Shown here: piece by piece, positions 19,647-51,856 of the stretch
Numbering within the stretch: position 1 is the stretch's first letter
Layout: each line of letters opens with the position of its first letter
DNA from: Patescibacteria group bacterium
GTDB lineage: Bacteria > Patescibacteriota > Microgenomatia > Levybacterales > UBA12049
Direction: 5' to 3'
Assembly (NCBI GenBank): GCA_023484045.1
Contig: JAMDAA010000018.1
Coordinates: 4-64,003 of the forward strand
DNA length: 64,000 nt
Made by a program: the position numbers and the translations under genes
Notes under the pieces: generated by a model
Databases searched by the model: none
Seen by the model: the letters and a program-made list of their open reading frames with translations, nothing else
Told to the model about the DNA's origin: nothing

Positions 19647-20011
19647 AATATAAGAATATCACTAATCCAAATATAAAATAAAAAATTGCTGTCATCAAAT
19701 GGCCGCAGAACGTGAGTAATGGTGAAAGTAATCGGAGCTTTTTATTTATTCAAAATATTTACTGATCTTTTAATCGCCACAAATCCGTAACCCCACAAGA
19801 AAGGCAACCATAAAGGCATTAAGCCGAATAAACTATTTCTGCTAAAAGTTTCTGCACCTGTAGATACAAATAAATATTCAAAAATTACCATTACGCAAAA
19901 ACCAAAAATAAAAAATAAAATATCTTTTGATTCAAATTTTATAATCAACGATATTATAAGACTATTCTTTTTTCCATTTTTTCCCTTCGATTCGCTTCGC
20001 TCACTCAGGGT

Positions 20012-20281
20012 TTACAACTTTTTTAATAGTGCTTTATCTCCTTTAATTAAAGCTTCTTTTTTAGATCGCGACCAACTCTTTAATTGATATTCTCTTTGCA
20101 TTGCTTCTTTTCTTGAATTATAAGTTTCTGAGTAAGCCAATTCAAAAGAGTAAAAATTCCTAATATATTTTGCGGATTTCGAATTTTTAGCTTTATGCTC
20201 TTTCAGTCTTTTCTTTAAATTATTAGTTTGTCCAATATATAAAGTGTTTGAAGAGGTTCGAAGAATATAGACGTAGAACAT
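20012..20281 (-). CDS. GIY-YIG nuclease family protein (small, homing-endonuclease-like), copy 1
   Basis: 'MFYVYILRTSSNTLYIGQTNNLKKRLKEH' GIY-(10)-YIG motif; 89 aa. Confidence 0.8.
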   Translation of the reverse strand: MFYVYILRTSSNTLYIGQTNNLKKRLKEHKAKNSKSAKYIRNFYSFELAYSETYNSRKEAMQREYQLKSWSRSKKEALIKGDKALLKKL

Positions 20282-20450
20282 GGTTCGACTACGCGCTCAC
20301 CACACTCGACTCAAGTGCTATAGCCATGAGCGAACGAAGTGAGTCGAATGGCTGCTGGGCTTGGATTCCCCGCCTGCGGTCGCCTGAGGCGACAGCCGAT
20401 GGCGGGCAGGGAACCAAAATAAACGGATCCCCGCCTTGCCAAAGCCTGAG

Positions 20451-20521
20451 CTGCGGGACATGGATTCGAACCATGATACTGGGATCCAAAGTCCCATGTC
20501 CTACCATTAGACGATCCCGCA
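20451..20521 (-). tRNA. tRNA-Gln (anticodon TTG)
   Basis: manual cloverleaf: acceptor TGCGGGA/TCCCGCA, 3-bp D stem, anticodon stem TGGGA/TCCCA with loop CTTTGGA, T arm CATGG-TTCGAAT-CCATG. Confidence 0.8.
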
Positions 20522-20676
20522 GCACAAACTTCAGCGATGGCGGGCAGGCAAAGTCCCGCCTGCGGCCTACCATTAGACGACCCAGCAATACTCCTTAATG
20601 ATACCAAATTAGGCTTCGCGCTTCAATCCGATCAACATATATTGACTTAGTTTGATAGCTGTGTTTTAATCTGAAC

Positions 20677-21450
20677 ATGGACCAGGAACAAAACAAAATA
20701 GAGGAAAAGGAAGGGAAACAGGAAAACAAAAATTATGTCAAAATTCCGACACAGCTTTTTATATTTATAGGACTGGCTGTATTATTAATTATAATTTTAA
20801 TCGTCGGATTTTATCTTGGTTCAAATTACGGAAAAAATAATCAAAAAAGCGCACAACCAACTCCTGTTACGAAAGTCTCTCCGACGATTCAAGTAACACT
20901 GACGTCGACTCAAATTACACCAACTGTGTCTTTGCCCGAAAGTTCAAATCCAAACGTAAAAAGATTTATATCAGACATTTTGGGGATTTCGTTTACATAC
21001 CTTGAGAATCAGGACAACGGGAAAATATTAGCAAAAGAAGTCGGAAACAAAGTTTATGTTTATCCTTCAAATCTCCCTGAAACAACCGGACAATACGTAG
21101 AGGTAATGAGTAAAGACAAAAATAATACGCTCGAGCAGGCGCTCAGAAAATCGATTTTAAAAGGTTATTCCCAAGCTAATTGTCTTTTAAAACCGGTTAA
21201 TTTAAATAATGGCAATCCAGATTATGTTACGATCGAAATCGTCGTCCCGATAACCGATAATGATGATTTGTCAACGATCGATGAAAAGGCAAAAAAATGT
21301 CCGCCAAAATACACAGCGACTAATGGACAAGCCTATTTTCTGGAAGATAAAAATCATCCCGATAGAATGCTTTTCTTTTCGATCGGTCAATACGCGATAA
21401 TGTCCGAAGGCGGCAAAACGTGGCAGGAAACTATAAAAATATTTAAATAA
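20677..21450 (+). CDS. hypothetical membrane-anchored protein (N-terminal TM, extracytoplasmic)
   Basis: 257 aa ORF, TM helix residues ~25-47, Cys pair near C-terminus. Confidence 0.45.
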   Translation: MDQEQNKIEEKEGKQENKNYVKIPTQLFIFIGLAVLLIIILIVGFYLGSNYGKNNQKSAQPTPVTKVSPTIQVTLTSTQITPTVSLPESSNPNVKRFISDILGISFTYLENQDNGKILAKEVGNKVYVYPSNLPETTGQYVEVMSKDKNNTLEQALRKSILKGYSQANCLLKPVNLNNGNPDYVTIEIVVPITDNDDLSTIDEKAKKCPPKYTATNGQAYFLEDKNHPDRMLFFSIGQYAIMSEGGKTWQETIKIFK

Positions 21451-28451: not shown

Positions 28452-28885
28452 TCGTTTACTCTGAACGAACATTGTTCCGTTTCACGGGATGCCTTGAACA
28501 CTTAAACCCTCTGCATTGTGTCGAAGCGGTGAATCGAACACCGATAACGTGTTCTTCAGACACGCGCCTTGACCACGTTGGCAACTTCGACAGATTCGAC
28601 TCCGCTCACTGTCTAGCGGAATCAATCAGGCTCCATGCTAATTCGTATGGTCAACCCTGAGCCCGTCGAAGGGTGACCACGTTGGCAACTTCGACAATCA
28701 ACTAATTATACCAAATGAACTCAAAAATTCCTATACGAAGAGGGAAGAGAAATACATGTCTCATAAGGAGTATCCTTATATGCGTAAACATCTGATCGCA
28801 CAGGGATACTCCTTGTTGAATTTGTTGAATTATTTTATCCCTTCGTCCCAAAAATTTCCCAAATTTTTGGTATACTAACCCAAAT

Positions 28886-32238: not shown

Positions 32239-32354
32239 CAAACAGAATGGGTGCGGACGAGAGGACTTTCTTCGACTTCGCTCAGAATAAACTTCTCGTC
32301 CTCTCTTATCCTTCCGTTCAACAAACTCAAGCAACCCTGAGCTCGCCGAATGGG

Positions 32355-32438
32355 TGCGGACGAGAGGACTCGAACCTCCACGCTTTTTAGGGCACAGCCA
32401 CCTCAAGGCTGCGTGTATACCAGTTTCACCACGTCCGC
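32355..32438 (-). tRNA. tRNA-Leu (anticodon GAG), long variable arm
   Basis: manual fold: acceptor GCGGACG/CGTCCGC, anticodon stem CAGCC/GGCTG loop TTGAGGT, 16-nt variable arm. Confidence 0.8.
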
Positions 32439-33406: not shown

Positions 33407-33517
33407 AAGGCAAGGCGGGTCTGCCAATTCCAGCACCAAAGCATGTTATTCTTACTTGATTGTATCAAATGCGCACAAAACTTGACAACATTTTTAAAAT
33501 ATGCAACATTTAAAGCA

Positions 33518-34936: not shown

Positions 34937-35023
34937 CAGTCCTCCCTGTCCTCCGAAGCCTCTCGCCACGCGAAGCCTTGGCGAAGTGCGGTGGCGAAGG
35001 AGGATCCCGGCTACTCGAAATTT

Positions 35024-35896
35024 ATGATATCAGCAATCGAAAAATTACAAGACGGAACAATAAAACTGACTCTTACGATCCCTTTTTCTGACGTTACCAA
35101 GACAAAAGAAGAAGTGATCGGTTTATTTGTTGCAGAATCCGAACTACCGGGGTTTAGAAAAGGAAAAGCTCCAAAAAAGCTCGTCGAGGAAAAAATCGAC
35201 CAAGAAAAAGTTCGGGAAGAAATTCTAAAACGATTATTACCAAAGGCTTATTCAGAAGCAGTCAAAGATCACAATTTGAGACCGATTATCAATCCGCAAA
35301 TACATATTCATCAGATTGAAGAGAGTAAAGACTGGATCTTTGTTGCGCTAACCTGCGAAGCTCCGGAAATAAATTTAGGCAATTATAAAGACGAAATTAA
35401 AAAATTAACTGCTAAAAGTAAAATTATTGTTCCGGACAGAGAACCCTTCGACAAGCTCAGGGCAAGACCCTTCGACAAAGCTCAGGGCAAGCAGGAAGTA
35501 AATTTCGACGAAATCGTAAAAGAACTTTTGACAAACGCAACCGTTAAAATCCCAAAAATTATTGTCGATCAGGAGACCGACAGACTACTTGCACAAACTC
35601 TGGATGAAGTAAAAAAACTCGGTTTAACTCTTGAACAATATCTCTCTTCAACCCAAAGAACTCCGCAGGACTTAAGAGCAGAATACGTGAAAAAAGCCGA
35701 AGACGATATAAAACTCGAGTTTGTTCTTCAAAAAGTAGCACAGGATGAAAAAATATCGGTTTCGGAAAAAGAAATCGATGAGGCGATCCAAAAGGCAAAA
35801 GACGAAAACGAGCGAAAAAATCTTGAAGCAAACAGATATTTACTCGCAAGTATTTTAAGACAGCAAAAAACACTTGATTTCCTAAGGAATTTGTGA
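35024..35896 (+). CDS. tig: trigger factor, short form lacking the PPIase domain
   Basis: ribosome-binding signature 'GFRKGKAP' in N-terminal domain plus C-terminal chaperone-arm-like region; only ~290 aa; start set at MISAIEKL (35024) because the upstream ORF extension runs through tRNA-Leu(TAG). Confidence 0.7.
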   Translation: MISAIEKLQDGTIKLTLTIPFSDVTKTKEEVIGLFVAESELPGFRKGKAPKKLVEEKIDQEKVREEILKRLLPKAYSEAVKDHNLRPIINPQIHIHQIEESKDWIFVALTCEAPEINLGNYKDEIKKLTAKSKIIVPDREPFDKLRARPFDKAQGKQEVNFDEIVKELLTNATVKIPKIIVDQETDRLLAQTLDEVKKLGLTLEQYLSSTQRTPQDLRAEYVKKAEDDIKLEFVLQKVAQDEKISVSEKEIDEAIQKAKDENERKNLEANRYLLASILRQQKTLDFLRNL

Positions 35897-37932: not shown

Positions 37933-37991
37933 GGACTCTTAGCTCAGTTGGTTAGAGCGGTCGCCTTAGGCGACAGGTCGCAGGTTCGAAT
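37933..37991 (+). pseudogene. tRNA-Val-like 5' fragment (acceptor-5', D arm, aberrant anticodon arm, T stem-5' and T loop; 3' part replaced)
   Basis: identical to tRNA-Val(GAC) at 38237 over positions 1-25 and 44-60 but with anticodon arm GTCGCC-TTA-GGCGAC and no 3' acceptor strand. Confidence 0.5.
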
Positions 37992-38000
37992 AGTACATAA

Positions 38001-38246
38001 ATGTGGTACGTATATGTTTTGAAAAGTATAGTAAATTCGAGATTTTATACAGGATCAACAAATAACTTGGAAAGAAGATTAAAAGAACATAATTCAGGGC
38101 ATAGTAAATATACAAGGTTAACTAAACCTTTTGAAATTATATACCAAGAAACTTACAAAAAGAGACTTGAGGCACGGAGGAGAGAATTATTTTTAAAAAC
38201 TGGTAAGGGAAGAGAGTTATTGAAAAGTTTAATCATGGACTCTTAG
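38001..38246 (+). CDS. GIY-YIG nuclease family protein, copy 2 (embedded between tRNA-Val fragment and intact tRNA-Val)
   Basis: 'MWYVYVLKSIVNSRFYTGSTNNLERRLKEH'; stop codon TAG lies at positions 8-10 of the downstream tRNA. Confidence 0.75.
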   Translation: MWYVYVLKSIVNSRFYTGSTNNLERRLKEHNSGHSKYTRLTKPFEIIYQETYKKRLEARRRELFLKTGKGRELLKSLIMDS

Positions 38247-38310
38247 CTCAGTTGGTTAGAGCGCGTCGTTGACATCGACGAGGTCGCAGGTTCGAATCCT
38301 ACAGAGTCCA
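38237..38310 (+). tRNA. tRNA-Val (anticodon GAC)
   Basis: manual fold: GGACTCT-TA-GCTC-AGTTGGTTA-GAGC-G-CGTCG-TTGACAT-CGACG-AGGTC-GCAGG-TTCGAAT-CCTAC-AGAGTCC-A (one C-A mismatch in T stem). Confidence 0.75.
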
Positions 38311-38377
38311 CTTAGCTAAGTTTGTTAGAGCGGTCGCCTTAGGCGACAGGTCACAAGTTCGACTCTTGTCGAGCCCA
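38311..38377 (+). pseudogene. tRNA-like 3' fragment with degenerate D arm, same aberrant anticodon hairpin, distinct T arm and CGAGCCC-A 3' end
   Basis: 'GTTAGAGCGGTCGCCTTAGGCGACAGGTC' shared with 37951..37979; no matching 5' acceptor strand. Confidence 0.4.
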
Positions 38378-42788: not shown

Positions 42789-45023
42789 TCAACGGGGCAG
42801 GTTAACATCGCTTTTTAAACGATGTGAAATTTTGAGAAAAGACAATCTTTTTCTAAAAATTACGAATACGATTATCAATGGCAATAATATTAATAACCAT
42901 GCAAGATTTACAGACACTTTTCCGCTTTGTCCACCTACTGTTGTCGACATTCCGAATACACTACTCAAATTTGCGTGATTAGAAACTCCGGCAATTTTCA
43001 CGTCGGCAGTCGTGTATGAATCGCCCAAAGACGAATCGTTGCTGTTTGAACCCGCAACAACCGCTGCTGCTGTCGGAGTAGGCGAAGACGCAGTACCGGA
43101 ATTACCATTATTGTTATTATTATTGTTGTTTGTAGGACTTTGTCCGCCGACCGGATGATTTTCTGGCGCAGATGTTGGATTTTGGGCTAACTTTATGTCA
43201 TCTGCTTTCGGTTGTTTTTCTTGTCCCGGTGTCACAAAATCTCCGAGCCAACTTCCGAAAACATTAACAACCGTCACCATTAATTTTCCGCCTTTTATAT
43301 TGTTGTTAACAAAATTTACGAGGTTTGCGATTACTTTCGCGTCGCCGGTTTTGATCGTCGAATCTCCGCCTGTATTTTTAGACGCATCGTTTCCGCCGGT
43401 ATTTGCCGTTAGGTTAATATTATTGACGACTTTACCCGTGTTTGTCTGAACAGTCGTATTGTTTGTGTTTTGTGAAACATCGGTCGTATTCGTTGAATTA
43501 CTGCCGTTTCCAGAATTTACCGCGGTAATCGTGCCGTCTGCTCCTACTTTAAATTCTGTTCCGTCCGATCCGGCAAAATTACTGCCTGTTGGCGCACCCA
43601 ATAACTTTCCAACCCAGTTTCCTGCTTCATTAACAACCACTAACCACCAATTGACGCCGTCAACATTGCTGTTTGCGATGTTTAAAACATTCGCATCAAC
43701 CGATGTGTTTCCGGTTGTAACAGATGAATTACCATTCGTATTTCCACTGACACTGTTATCTCCCGATATCGCATTAAGAGTTAGGTTATTTTCTATGTTA
43801 GCGTCGTTCTTTTGGAAAGAGTTATTATTTGTTGTCTTGTCATAATTTACAGTATTATCCGAACCCGTTCCGTTTCCTGCATTAGCCAAAGTTGTACTTG
43901 CCCCCGAATTTGCAAATGCCTTGTCAACCTCGCTTTGCGGCAAAATTATGTCGCCGACCAAATTCCCAAAAACATTAACAACTCCGTAAACTACATTTCC
44001 GGCCATATTATTATTAACAAAGTTCAGTACGTTTGCTGCAACATTTGCGTCACCGGTTGTAATCGATGAATTCCCGTCGGTATTTTTAGACGCTGTGTTA
44101 TTTCCGGAGTCGGAAAGAAGCGTCATGTTGTTTCCGACAGTCCCGTCGTTATTTTGAAAAGTCGTGTTATTCGTGTTTTGTGAAAGATTGGCATTATTTG
44201 TGGTATCAGCACCGTTATTTGCGTTTGCGACCATCGCGTTTCCGGATGTTCCACACCCCGAAACACAACTTGCGCCAAAATCCAAAACTATATCGCCGAC
44301 ATGATCGTCTGCGACATTAAATTCAGAAACCGCAACACCCGCAACATTCGTATTTAATCCGGTTATAATCGTACCCGTTGTGTTGGCATTTCCGCTATTA
44401 ATAGTCGAGTCTCCACCTGTATTTTTGGAAGCAGAATTTTGTCCGGATATCGAATCCTGATTAAGATTATTAGAAACTACACCGCTGTTATTTTGAACTA
44501 CAGTACTACCGTCTGTAATATTTGCTGTTCCGTTATTTTCTGACCCAGTTCCATTACTGCTGTTTGCTACCAAAACTCCGCCCGAAACATTGGCCGGATC
44601 AATCGCAGATAAATTACTGTTTCCGAGACTGTTAATAACTCCACTATTTGTTATATCCCCGCTATTAATAGTATTGTCACCGACTTTACCATCTGATGTC
44701 GTCCCGGAAGTCGTAGGAACATTTGTTGCAGTAACTGTTGGGGTCGGAGTCGGATCATCTGAATGATGGCGACGTGGTTTTTCCGTCGGAGTAGGGGTTG
44801 GTGTCGAACTAAGTATTTCATTCAAAGTCGGTGTTGTGGGCGCGGCTGGAACGTCTGGCGCTGTTGGAGCCTGGGGCACATCTGGCGCTGTAGGGGCAGC
44901 AGACGGTACAATCGGCGCATCGGGAGGCGTAGGAATATCAAACGCTCTTACAGGCGGCGCCTGCATTAATAAAAGTACCGCTATCGAAAGTATCGCTAAA
45001 TATTTTTTAATTTTTTTAATCAT
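42789..45023 (-). CDS. giant (744 aa) Asn/Thr/Gly repeat surface protein with Pro/Ala/Thr N-terminal linker and C-terminal TM anchor
   Basis: signal peptide; 'APTAPDVPQAPTAPDVPAAPTTPT' linker; >8 repeats 'SG.N.ASKNTGG.S.I.TG.A.V.AN.LN..N.N..G'; C-terminal 'LLILLPLIIVFVIFRKR'. Confidence 0.65.
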   Translation of the reverse strand: MIKKIKKYLAILSIAVLLLMQAPPVRAFDIPTPPDAPIVPSAAPTAPDVPQAPTAPDVPAAPTTPTLNEILSSTPTPTPTEKPRRHHSDDPTPTPTVTATNVPTTSGTTSDGKVGDNTINSGDITNSGVINSLGNSNLSAIDPANVSGGVLVANSSNGTGSENNGTANITDGSTVVQNNSGVVSNNLNQDSISGQNSASKNTGGDSTINSGNANTTGTIITGLNTNVAGVAVSEFNVADDHVGDIVLDFGASCVSGCGTSGNAMVANANNGADTTNNANLSQNTNNTTFQNNDGTVGNNMTLLSDSGNNTASKNTDGNSSITTGDANVAANVLNFVNNNMAGNVVYGVVNVFGNLVGDIILPQSEVDKAFANSGASTTLANAGNGTGSDNTVNYDKTTNNNSFQKNDANIENNLTLNAISGDNSVSGNTNGNSSVTTGNTSVDANVLNIANSNVDGVNWWLVVVNEAGNWVGKLLGAPTGSNFAGSDGTEFKVGADGTITAVNSGNGSNSTNTTDVSQNTNNTTVQTNTGKVVNNINLTANTGGNDASKNTGGDSTIKTGDAKVIANLVNFVNNNIKGGKLMVTVVNVFGSWLGDFVTPGQEKQPKADDIKLAQNPTSAPENHPVGGQSPTNNNNNNNNGNSGTASSPTPTAAAVVAGSNSNDSSLGDSYTTADVKIAGVSNHANLSSVFGMSTTVGGQSGKVSVNLAWLLILLPLIIVFVIFRKRLSFLKISHRLKSDVNLPR

Positions 45024-51214: not shown

Positions 51215-51856
51215 ATGAATCGGGAAGAAGCGTATCAAATTTTATTTGAGCTTGTAAAAAATCCCAGTCTTATAAAACATCATTTAGCTTGTGAAGCCGT
51301 GATGAAGGCTTTGTATCGCAGATTAAATAATCAGATAAATCAACAGGACGAAGAAAAATGGGGACTAGTAGGATTATTGCATGATGCCGATTATGAATTA
51401 TCGCACGATCACCCGGAAAAACATTCTTTGATTTTAGAAGAAAAGTACGGAAACGTAATTCCGCAAGATGTTATGTACGCGATAAAATGCCACGATTTCG
51501 AAAACACAAAAGTCGAGCCAAAAAGTCTTATGGATTGGAGTATTTATTGTTGTGACGAATTAACCGGAATAATAATCGCTTCAACTCTTATTCACCCTGC
51601 CTCGCCAGACGGCTCGCCTCGACTCGCCTCGCGAAGCGGGTTCGGCGAAGCGGGCGGGCAAGGCGGGCTCGACAAAAAATTAGTATCTGTTACTCCCGAT
51701 TTTGTCTTAAACCGTTTTAACGAAAAATCTTTTGCCAGAAGCGCAAATCGCAATTCCGTAAAAAGGTGCGAAGACAAACTCGGCATTCCGCTTTTGGAAT
51801 TTATTGCTATTTGCTTAAACGCGATGAAGATGATAAGTAACGAGCTTGGATTGTAA
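51215..51856 (+). CDS. HD-domain phosphohydrolase with GC-rich in-frame insertion
   Basis: 'HLACEAVMKAL', 'LLHDADYE' HD motif; residues ~128-150 ('PASPDGSPRLASRSGFGEAGGQGG') encoded by an ~80-nt GC-rich segment. Confidence 0.6.
   Translation: MNREEAYQILFELVKNPSLIKHHLACEAVMKALYRRLNNQINQQDEEKWGLVGLLHDADYELSHDHPEKHSLILEEKYGNVIPQDVMYAIKCHDFENTKVEPKSLMDWSIYCCDELTGIIIASTLIHPASPDGSPRLASRSGFGEAGGQGGLDKKLVSVTPDFVLNRFNEKSFARSANRNSVKRCEDKLGIPLLEFIAICLNAMKMISNELGL

Follow-up and report, generated by a model that had tools for sequence, protein, structure and literature searches.

Nested tRNA-Gln genes, GC-rich palindromic inserts and a minimal GIY-YIG nuclease gene at a tRNA locus of a Patescibacteria bacterium

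Introduction

Stand-alone GIY-YIG proteins of the UPF0213/YhbQ family are very widespread, and two of their structures have been solved, with no function known for any of them. In this study, we analyse a locus in a 64,000-nucleotide (nt) stretch of DNA from a Patescibacteria group bacterium (assembly GCA_023484045.1, contig JAMDAA010000018.1, positions 4 to 64,003 of the forward strand; hereafter the window), in which the gene of a small GIY-YIG nuclease of this family (copy 1) lies on the minus strand behind two tRNA-Gln genes, one nested within the broken pieces of the other. Intron-free GIY-YIG genes among tRNA genes are known from phage T4, and its Seg genes are the closest analogue in behaviour of the arrangement described here. 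SegB, which is encoded in the phage tRNA cluster, reportedly cuts in the tRNA region and drives both its own inheritance and the amplification of that region. The Seg proteins, at more than double the length, include DNA-binding modules, whereas the copy 1 protein consists of a catalytic domain only, with 89 amino acids, is encoded on a bacterial chromosome and is accompanied by pseudo-tRNA arms and GC palindromes. By sequence, it belongs to the same family as the stand-alone Slx1-like/UPF0213 proteins BH0048 (1zg2), EF2693 (1ywl) and E. coli YhbQ, with which it shares the minimal domain. This stand-alone Slx1-like branch has no auxiliary domains, and one fusion to a TrmH-like tRNA methyltransferase has been described (Dunin-Horkawicz et al., 2006, PMC1564403). 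Our literature search (Candidate Phyla Radiation (CPR) with GIY-YIG and tRNA; COG2827; UPF0213/YhbQ) found no report of linkage to tRNA genes and, as far as that search goes, this linkage, the clade-specific palindromes and the pseudo-tRNA flanks distinguish the genes considered here from the published UPF0213 proteins.

Structured RNA genes of CPR bacteria are known to be interrupted in another context. The rRNA genes of these bacteria carry insertion sequences, some of which encode GIY-YIG proteins and are unlike group I or group II introns, while many others are short, uncharacterised and free of open reading frames (ORFs) (PMC11270868). The present locus resembles them in the bacterial group and in the interruption of genes for structured RNAs; however, those insertions occupy 16S and 23S genes, whereas the hosts here are tRNA genes or pseudogenes with an intact copy always alongside, and the phrase "tRNA gene" is absent from the main text of that paper (PMC11270868). 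A second group of comparable systems comprises the integrative elements that target tRNA genes, in which the inserted DNA likewise stands between short direct repeats of tRNA sequence, with one intact tRNA restored. The repeats at the element ends described below are 22 nt long at tRNA-Phe and tRNA-Leu(GAG) and 16-31 nt elsewhere. Unlike integrative elements, the present ones have no integrase, measure 80-400 nt, contain the GIY-YIG gene as the sole ORF, where there is any, and show repeats of the tRNA 5' end about as commonly as repeats of the 3' end.

A third likeness is to repetitive extragenic palindromic (REP) sequences and bacterial interspersed mosaic elements (BIMEs), miniature inverted-repeat transposable elements (MITEs) and Rickettsia palindromic elements (RPEs), which are also short GC-rich palindromes with shared termini and several copies per genome. 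RPEs insert in frame in protein genes, and one of the palindromic copies in the window similarly lies in frame in a gene for an HD phosphohydrolase. The elements described here differ from all of these in clustering in the loops of tRNA genes or pseudogenes beside GIY-YIG genes, with a copy number that is small so far; no transposase-like gene, such as that of a REP-associated tyrosine transposase (RAYT), was seen among the window ORFs that we inspected, and no systematic search for one was made. Finally, multi-intron and split tRNAs of archaea are interrupted at non-canonical sites, the T-loop among them, and have GC-rich helices beside the junctions, as is the case here. Unlike the archaeal introns with their bulge-helix-bulge motif, the helices at the present locus abut the junctions without the two bulges, the host is a bacterium and the anticodon stem is damaged. 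Broadly, we describe what is probably a homing-endonuclease-like or palindromic mobile element at tRNA genes, with an architecture that is recurrent and apparently undescribed in CPR genomes.

Results and Discussion

Anatomy of the locus

The locus is a compound unit read on the minus strand, in which a first tRNA-Gln gene (A) is broken by three GC-rich changes, a second, intact tRNA-Gln gene (B) lies inside the first insert, and a conserved leader and the nuclease gene follow. We regard this anatomy as close to certain. The pieces of A equal the intact tRNA-Gln(TTG) of another Patescibacteria metagenome-assembled genome (MAG; locus L013, the L numbers designating loci fetched for comparison) at 67 of 72 positions in four collinear segments, and the only part that does not match is the ACAAC of the anticodon-stem 5' strand, which is replaced by CCGCAGGCG. 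The first segment, nt 1-22 of A with the acceptor 5' strand and the D-arm (TGCTGGGTCGTCTAATGGTAGG, 20566..20587), is identical to L013 at 22/22 positions and to B at 20/22, with a profile match in nhmmer at E=3.7e-4. The preliminary description of this DNA had noted a degenerate tRNA 5' half upstream of the intact gene, and was correct in this. The partial copy is succeeded by GGGACTTTG at 20557-20549. In the alignment to L013, the replacement CCGCAGGCG occupies 20557..20565, and the anticodon-loop piece of A with the anticodon TTG (GGACTTTG) occupies 20549..20556. In the minimum free energy (MFE) fold, the replacement pairs with 20548-20539 in a GC hairpin of 8 bp that encloses the old anticodon loop, and the same 11-mer, CCGCAGGCGGG, recurs at 20379-20369.

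After the anticodon of A comes insert 1, whose limits were taken from the L013 alignment (119 nt, 20430..20548, starting CCTGCCCGCCATCGCTG and ending GGCAAGGCGGG). It contains B, an intact tRNA-Gln(UUG) at 20450-20521 that was called by ARAGORN and scores 63.2 bits with the Rfam tRNA model (threshold 29); its flanks within the insert pair with each other and lengthen the B acceptor stem. The third segment of A (GATCCGTTTATTTTGGTTC, 20411..20429), which spans nt 37-56 with the anticodon-stem 3' strand, the variable loop, the T-stem 5' strand and the TTC of the T-loop, equals L013 at 19/19 positions and has a weak nhmmer match. It is followed by insert 2, which by the same alignment is 42 nt long (20369..20410) and interrupts the T-loop of A as GGTTC^...^GAATCC. 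The remainder of the T-loop, the T-stem 3' strand, the acceptor strand CCCAGCA and the discriminator base (GAATCCAAGCCCAGCAGC, 20351..20368) complete the gene, with 18/18 positions equal to L013 and 83% identity to the 3' end of B. These 3' parts of A, at 20429-20411 and 20368-20351, had been overlooked in the preliminary description, in which they were counted as spacer.

The two inserts share their termini, with CCTGCCCGCCATCG(G)CTG at the start and GCA(A)GGCGGG at the finish, and in each the two ends pair with each other. Insert 2 has an outer helix of CCTGCCCGCC with GCAGGCGGG and an inner palindrome, GTCGCC-TCA-GGCGAC (20393-20379). Whereas B is a full cloverleaf above the gathering threshold of Rfam RF00005, A with its three interruptions has no contiguous cloverleaf. 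Nevertheless its acceptor strands, CCCAGCA and TGCTGGG (20587-20581), are complementary, with two compensatory pair changes relative to B, and ARAGORN calls a tRNA-Gln(ttg) once both inserts are removed from A in silico, whereas it does not call A in place with introns allowed. A is a pseudogene and B supplies the tRNA-Gln function. Since the leader of the nuclease gene adjoins the 3' end of A and not that of B, A is the original tRNA partner of the nuclease gene and B the newcomer.

The 168 nt between the intact tRNA-Gln and the GIY-YIG ORF (20282-20449, minus strand) are 60.1% GC, as compared with a window mean of 38.2%; this is the GC maximum of the window for stretches of that length, only 0.06% of which reach 60.1%, and the longest GC island of the window runs from 20320 to 20598. 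The complementary blocks GGCGGGG/CCCGCC, AGCCAT/ATGGCT and GTCGCC-TCA-GGCGAC are all present in it. The structured GC-rich spacer, the tRNA-Gln and the GIY-YIG start were all found where the preliminary description had placed them. Its minus strand folds better than shuffled sequences (z=-3.3, with 0/200 shuffles as good), and so does its plus strand (z=-3.27); likewise for 20351-20587 the values are -4.98 (minus) and -5.29 (plus), with no asymmetry between strands. Because both strands fold equally well, the signal is that of palindromic DNA and not of a strand-specific RNA. The MFE fold of 20587-20351 retains the acceptor stem and D-arm of A, the cloverleaf of B and a long T-loop hairpin. 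The segment had been described as RNA or mobile-element structure, and of this we favour the mobile-element part: we read the segment as a trace left by a selfish element of a kind that has been little studied, and not as a new RNA gene or intron remnant. ORFs open in three frames are indeed present and, as had been proposed, are not protein-coding: each of them overlaps a genuine tRNA and goes unmatched in Pfam, and the homologous spacers vary in length with no frame preference.

The nuclease gene, its leader and the linkage to tRNA-Gln

The copy 1 gene (20012..20281, minus strand) encodes 89 amino acids of the UPF0213, or prokaryotic Slx1-like, type. Pfam PF01541 (E=5.1e-19) covers residues 1-75 and no other domain was found; the matches in the PDB are 1zg2 (UPF0213 BH0048, E=1.9e-11) and 1ywl (EF2693). 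Seventeen columns are invariant in an alignment of 20 sequences, including Y5, Y15, G17, R25, E28, H29 and E64. The homologs under the E-value cut-off number 1379, and among the matches listed (119 besides the query) identity is 70-81%, with Patescibacteria as the source wherever one is named.

For the genomic context of this Gln-type gene, we compared 80 genome loci with 58-80% protein identity, mostly from Microgenomates (Woese-, Levy-, Davies-, Shapiro- and Gottesmanbacteria, WWE3). The nearest upstream tRNA gene on the same strand is tRNA-Gln (TTG or CTG) in 33/33 cases; at two further loci the tRNA-Gln is divergent, and two more are cut by contig ends. Of the 75 loci whose upstream flank is long enough, 24 carry tRNA-Gln at a distance of no more than 260 nt, another 24 show leader arms alone, and the remaining 27 lack both. 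At L013:1028-1099 and L032:1040-1111, the GIY-YIG gene is divergent and starts ~90-100 nt from the tRNA-Gln 5' end, across an AT-rich spacer and with no leader, so the tRNA-Gln linkage holds in a second orientation too.

The conserved leader of copy 1 occupies the 69 nt between A and the start codon (20282..20350, minus strand). Its left arm is (C)ATTCGACTCACTTCGTTCGCTCATGGCTATAGC, and its right arm, GGTGAGCGCGTAGTCGAACC, continues into the ATG. The same blocks are found directly 3' of tRNA-Gln in ~20 other genomes, where they begin at the tRNA 3' end with (A)TTCGACTCACTGCGTTCGCTCAYGGCTATAGCC and usually end CCTGAGCGA..GGTGAGCGAAGTCGAACCAGAGTCGAAGGA just before the ATG. In L082, the entire 24-nt spacer between tRNA and ATG equals the first 24 nt of the window leader, the ATG lying within CTCATG. 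One arm is an inverted copy of the other, and genomes differ in the orientation in which the arms are found; nhmmer places an arm match at 20303-20281. A right-arm-type module, CCCTGAGTGAGCGAAGCGAATCGAAGGG, also lies just past the stop codon of copy 1 (19983..20010, minus strand) and is near-identical to the pre-ATG arm of L021 and L055, and arms downstream of the ORF are found in L042 and L052 as well.

A promoter scan found a single promoter-like site upstream of the whole unit, TTGAAG, 17 nt, TG-TATCAT (20598..20626, minus strand), which is a consensus match only (9/12 hexamer positions and an extended -10) and ends 10 nt before the first nucleotide of A. From A to the ORF, the minus strand has one other promoter match, which is weak and lies inside B, and the terminator scan gave a single weak terminator-like hairpin, in the variable-loop region of A.

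Copy 2 and clade-specific palindromes

The window holds a second GIY-YIG gene, copy 2 (38001-38246, plus strand), whose product is 50% identical to that of copy 1. It is preceded by a tRNA-Val-like 5' part (37933-37991) that is truncated in the T-loop and has the anticodon arm replaced by GGTCGCC-TTA-GGCGAC. The stop codon of copy 2 falls within the intact tRNA-Val(GAC) gene that comes next (38237-38311), behind which there is a further tRNA fragment with the same arm and a different acceptor strand (38312-38377, with 31 bits to the Rfam tRNA model over 38313-38369); all of these features are on the plus strand. Among 80 metagenome loci of the copy-2 type (L098-L177), the ORF ends between -7 and +30 nt from an intact same-strand tRNA of many identities in ~30. 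We also observed that relatives of copy 2 have this layout beside tRNAs for Val, Ile, Gly, Lys, Arg, Tyr and Ser.

Nearly all loci of the protein cluster that is nearest to copy 2, and of its closest sister clusters, carry GTCGCC-N(1-3)-GGCGAC 12-25 nt before the ATG, within a pseudo-tRNA that shares the acceptor strand and the D-arm with the downstream tRNA. This hairpin has 31 matches in 102 kb of copy-2-type loci and 0 in 195 kb of Gln-type loci, and the inner palindrome of insert 2 in A is the same hallmark hairpin. Other protein clusters have CCTGCCTGCCGGCAGGCAGG or TCCGCC-NNN-GGCGGA at the same distance before the ATG. That different clusters carry different palindromes suggests a specific, clade-wise pairing of protein and hairpin. 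More generally, GC palindromes are enriched around the GIY-YIG genes. We rejected the idea that GTCGCC-TNA-GGCGAC presents a suppressor-like anticodon (TTA, TCA): the loop triplet varies freely (TTG, GCA, TAA, TGA, TCA, GAA, GGC and ACA across loci), and position 33 would be C.

Recurrence of inserts and break points

The insertions in A have counterparts elsewhere. L141 and L170 have a T-loop insert at the same position with the same termini, GGTTC^CCTGCCCG...CAGGCGGG^GAWTCC, down to the same U-G pair and C-A mismatch, and L113 has one similar to insert 2. The hosts of these three inserts are not otherwise complete tRNAs; they are fragments that have no 5' half, and that of L141 is a displaced 3' duplicate of tRNA-Glu right after a GIY-YIG ORF. 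Moreover, GC palindromes are inserted in the D-loops of pseudo-tRNAs in L103, L107, L113, L122, L125, L135 and L151. In the window and all fetched loci taken together, we counted 17 exact partial copies, 16-31 nt long, beside intact tRNAs; copies of the 5' part stop at nt 17-22, and most copies of the 3' part begin 16-21 nt before the 3' terminus, so the break points fall in the D-loop and T-loop segments. Among Gln-type loci, a 5' copy of tRNA-Gln, 17-19 nt long, stands before the intact gene in L012, L015 and L082, and in L004, L015, L034, L052 and L087 nothing but a tRNA-Gln 3' fragment, which starts in or just after the T-loop, precedes the leader. In L087, this fragment differs from the resident intact tRNA-Gln.

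The tRNA arrays also differ in the cassettes that they hold. L017:100-1215 reads Glu-GIY-Lys-GIY-Gln-GIY, with three GIY-YIG paralogs of ~40% identity, whereas L070:700-1200, with the same three tRNAs, reads Glu-Lys-8 nt-Gln-GIY and has a GIY-YIG gene after tRNA-Gln only. This comparison spans different genera, and no pair within a species was found.

Interpretation

We consider it probable that the segment is debris left by insertion or repair of tRNA-gene-associated mini GIY-YIG cassettes and of related GC-rich palindromic elements, and the mechanism that would produce such debris is apparently undescribed. The suggestion of the preliminary description that the segment is the integration scar of the nuclease cassette thus comes broadly right, in the form of a tRNA-Gln broken by GC palindromic inserts next to the leader of a tRNA-linked cassette. 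Under this interpretation, the GIY-YIG gene and its palindromic leader would be a selfish, homing-endonuclease-like cassette of tRNA gene arrays. The nuclease, or the repair that it provokes, would break tRNA genes in the segments coding for the D-loop and T-loop, insertion or repair would leave short direct tRNA repeats and GC-rich palindromic inserts, and only those events that keep or regenerate one intact tRNA would survive selection, the present locus being a multi-hit example. As for expression, the whole unit may be transcribed from the promoter in front of A, and RNase P and RNase Z would then excise B and release the leader together with the nuclease mRNA. Since the nuclease gene has no promoter-like site of its own and excision of B would free its mRNA, we infer that it may be expressed by tRNA punctuation.

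Several observations weigh against an origin as cassette debris. To our knowledge, neither cleavage activity nor a target site nor mobility has been shown for any member of the UPF0213-type family, and the copy 1 protein, as a catalytic domain only, has no DNA-binding module, unlike characterised homing endonucleases. The high conservation of the protein, 58-81% among relatives, could reflect a housekeeping role, and the 27 of 75 loci with neither tRNA nor leader arms upstream do not fit the proposed linkage. The clade-specific palindromes, fixed 12-25 nt before the ATG, suggest by their placement something functional in binding, processing or translation control and do not look like scars. 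The 3' junctions of A are known from one MAG contig only, and the presence of a whole tRNA within insert 1 is left unexplained. Finally, a search by way of the flanking 257-aa gene gave no empty/filled pair for this locus in close relatives: the relatives of that gene are either the same organism (a Logan contig) or have ≤50% identity and different neighbours, hence no comparison with an empty site was obtained.

A bolder form of the argument, which we hold to be rather unlikely, is that the small GIY-YIG proteins work as a single system with the pseudo-tRNA arms and with the GC palindromes specific to each clade. A structure- or hairpin-directed nuclease of the stand-alone Slx1-like kind would recognise tRNA genes by the segments coding for the D-loop and T-loop and insert its cassette, or ORF-less palindromic derivatives, with target duplications of ~16-22 bp, always regenerating an intact tRNA and being expressed by tRNA punctuation. 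If so, this would be a new class of bacterial mobile element specific for tRNA genes and the first function for UPF0213 proteins; if the nuclease recognises tRNA-gene structure as such, it would widen the range of homing and transposition strategies and might be of use as a small nuclease. A still bolder variant would have the GC-rich loop inserts removed from the RNA, as a new kind of bacterial tRNA intervening sequence. At the other extreme, should the locus be mere debris, it would nevertheless serve as a clear illustration of how one tRNA gene can lie nested in a tRNA pseudogene.

The tight, clade-specific linkage to tRNA genes offers a testable hypothesis for the function of the UPF0213 family, namely that of selfish nucleases directed to tRNA genes. 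It has three parts: a Gln-type gene downstream of tRNA-Gln, a second type that abuts tRNA 5' ends, and pseudo-tRNA flanks with palindromes. These findings also explain a number of oddities of CPR genomes: islands of high GC within DNA that is otherwise AT-rich, partial copies of tRNAs, GC-rich ORFs that are spurious, and GC-rich in-frame inserts in proteins, features that annotation pipelines currently mis-call or ignore.

Alternative explanations

The best of the alternatives, which we nevertheless hold to be rather unlikely, is that the hairpins and the palindromic leader are cis-acting elements of a functional leader or processing RNA: once the GIY-YIG mRNA has been released from the tRNA transcript, they would govern how it is processed, how stable it is or how it is translated. 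Conservation of the leader blocks extends to ~45/75 loci, with the right arm running into the start codon, the clade-specific GC palindromes of copy-2-type genes keep their fixed distance to the ATG, the folding is significant, and no Shine-Dalgarno-like sequence is visible before either ATG. However, folding is as good on the opposite strand, the arms are not fixed in orientation among genomes, L082 and L077 manage without most of the leader, and no Rfam family matches. Folding and covariance of the homologous leaders, which the preliminary description had recommended, spoke against a shared structure: the alignment has conserved blocks and zero compensatory pairs, the RNAalifold consensus of 16 leaders amounts to 7 pairs, and a single conserved leader RNA fold was dropped on these grounds. 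The broken tRNA pieces are left unaccounted for by a leader RNA. This explanation may hold for the leader alone, and there it is compatible with an origin of the tRNA pieces as cassette debris.

It is less probable that the small GIY-YIG protein is a cellular tRNA- or RNA-related enzyme that is co-transcribed with tRNAs, with the partial copies arising from ordinary duplication and decay. The strong conservation of the protein and its catalytic residues, and the tight same-strand linkage to tRNAs in two clades, would fit such housekeeping synteny, and the fusion of a Slx1-like domain to a TrmH-like methyltransferase has been read as pointing to a function in RNA metabolism (Dunin-Horkawicz et al., 2006, PMC1564403). 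On the other hand, genomes hold several divergent paralogs, each beside a different tRNA; presence and absence differ between otherwise similar tRNA arrays; and the neighbouring genes are completely different between genomes. Nor would housekeeping account for the tRNA 3' fragment of L087, which differs from the resident tRNA, or for the enrichment of GC palindromes around the genes.

We regard as quite improbable that A is interrupted and yet functional, the inserts being a new bacterial tRNA intervening sequence, so that two tRNA-Gln would be made with B in the "intron" of A. The exon-like pieces of A match L013 without a substitution, the inserts are situated in loops, where helices next to the junctions close them off, the predicted fold keeps the acceptor stem and D-arm of A and the cloverleaf of B, and the T-loop insertion point is identical in three genomes; moreover, many of the insertion sequences in CPR rRNA genes are short, ORF-less and of no known type (PMC11270868). 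Against this, by inspection, the insert-free A keeps only 3/5 anticodon-stem pairs and its D-stem loses one. No bulge-helix-bulge motif is seen at the junctions, by inspection or in the MFE fold, and no group I intron matches; the T-loop inserts of L141, L170 and L113 sit in tRNA fragments with no 5' half; and an intact tRNA-Gln with the same anticodon is present.

A wrong joining of two tRNA-Gln loci in the assembly of the MAG is a very doubtful explanation. The tRNA-Gln sequences are repeated and the Logan contig breaks inside B, as might be expected of such an artefact, but the junctions lie in unique GC-rich sequence and not in shared tRNA sequence, the 5' junction is reproduced base for base in a separate Logan assembly of another run (L090), and the same architecture of T-loop insert and partial copies occurs in unrelated assemblies. 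The idea of a group I (or II) intron remnant, raised in the preliminary description, is practically discounted and was dropped: insert 1 lies beside the anticodon, the usual group I site in bacterial tRNAs, and a nuclease gene is nearby, but the Rfam scan recommended there gave only tRNAs and chance-level matches (no group I (RF00028), group II or other non-tRNA model at E≤10 in 19900-20750 or at E≤1 over the 20 kb of 19000-39500, and no intron model at the gathering score over the whole window), inserts of 42 nt (T-loop) and 119 nt (of which 72 nt are B) fall below the ~200 nt needed for a catalytic core (P3-P9), and the nuclease gene is outside the interrupted tRNA.

Related segments elsewhere in the window

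The insert termini CCTGCC(T)CGCC ... GCA(A)GGCGGG occur at 20548/20430, 20410/20369 and 51576/51667, with a partial copy at 33410-33419. At the third of these places, ORF 51215-51856 (plus strand), which encodes an HD phosphohydrolase, contains a 72-nt GC-rich in-frame insert of 24 amino acids, ASPDGSPRLASRSGFGEAGGQGGL (51599-51670), whose termini (CCTGCCTCGCC ... GGGCAAGGCGGG) resemble those of the tRNA inserts. The insert is absent from 6/7 aligned homologs, and the seventh, P0141, has a 7-aa insert (ASPAGGP) at the same site; a sequence search of the PDB with the HD protein gave no match. Of the two GC-rich segments that the preliminary description had proposed for comparison, that at 51592-51680 is thus related by its termini and as an in-frame insertion in a protein gene, whereas that at 34937-35020 has no clear relation. 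The latter corresponds to a GC-rich stretch between tRNA-Leu(TAG) and the next gene (34938-35026, plus strand), which folds no better than shuffled sequences (z=-0.71) and has no clear similarity to the other elements. A GC island at 44816-44964 (minus strand) was rejected as a related element, since it codes for a Pro/Ala-rich repeat close to the N-terminus of a protein of 744 aa that is secreted or repetitive, and so was a derivation of the insert termini from the ends of tRNA-Cys, since the tRNA-Cys genes in the loci do not match.

Three further tRNA genes of the window, all on the minus strand, have exact or apparent partial copies beside them. At tRNA-Phe (28570-28695), the first 22 nt of the gene (GTCGAAGTTGCCAACGTGGTCA) are repeated exactly 104 nt upstream, and the interval holds an 82-nt ORF-less, leader-like palindromic module (CCCTTCGACGGGCTCAGGG ... 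GTGAGCGGAGTCGAATC). At tRNA-Leu(GAG) (32245-32369), the last 19 nt together with TTC (22 nt) recur without change beyond a leader-like, ORF-less module of 81 nt, immediately ahead of tRNA-Val(TAC), and the sizes of repeat and module are about those at tRNA-Phe. Directly upstream of tRNA-Leu(CAG) there is what looks, by eye against tRNA-Leu(TAG), like a degenerate tRNA-Leu 5' half (TTTGGTGCTGGAATTGGCAGAC, 33407-33440), and after it comes CCCGCCTTGCC, which read on the opposite strand is the insert terminus GGCAAGGCGGG.

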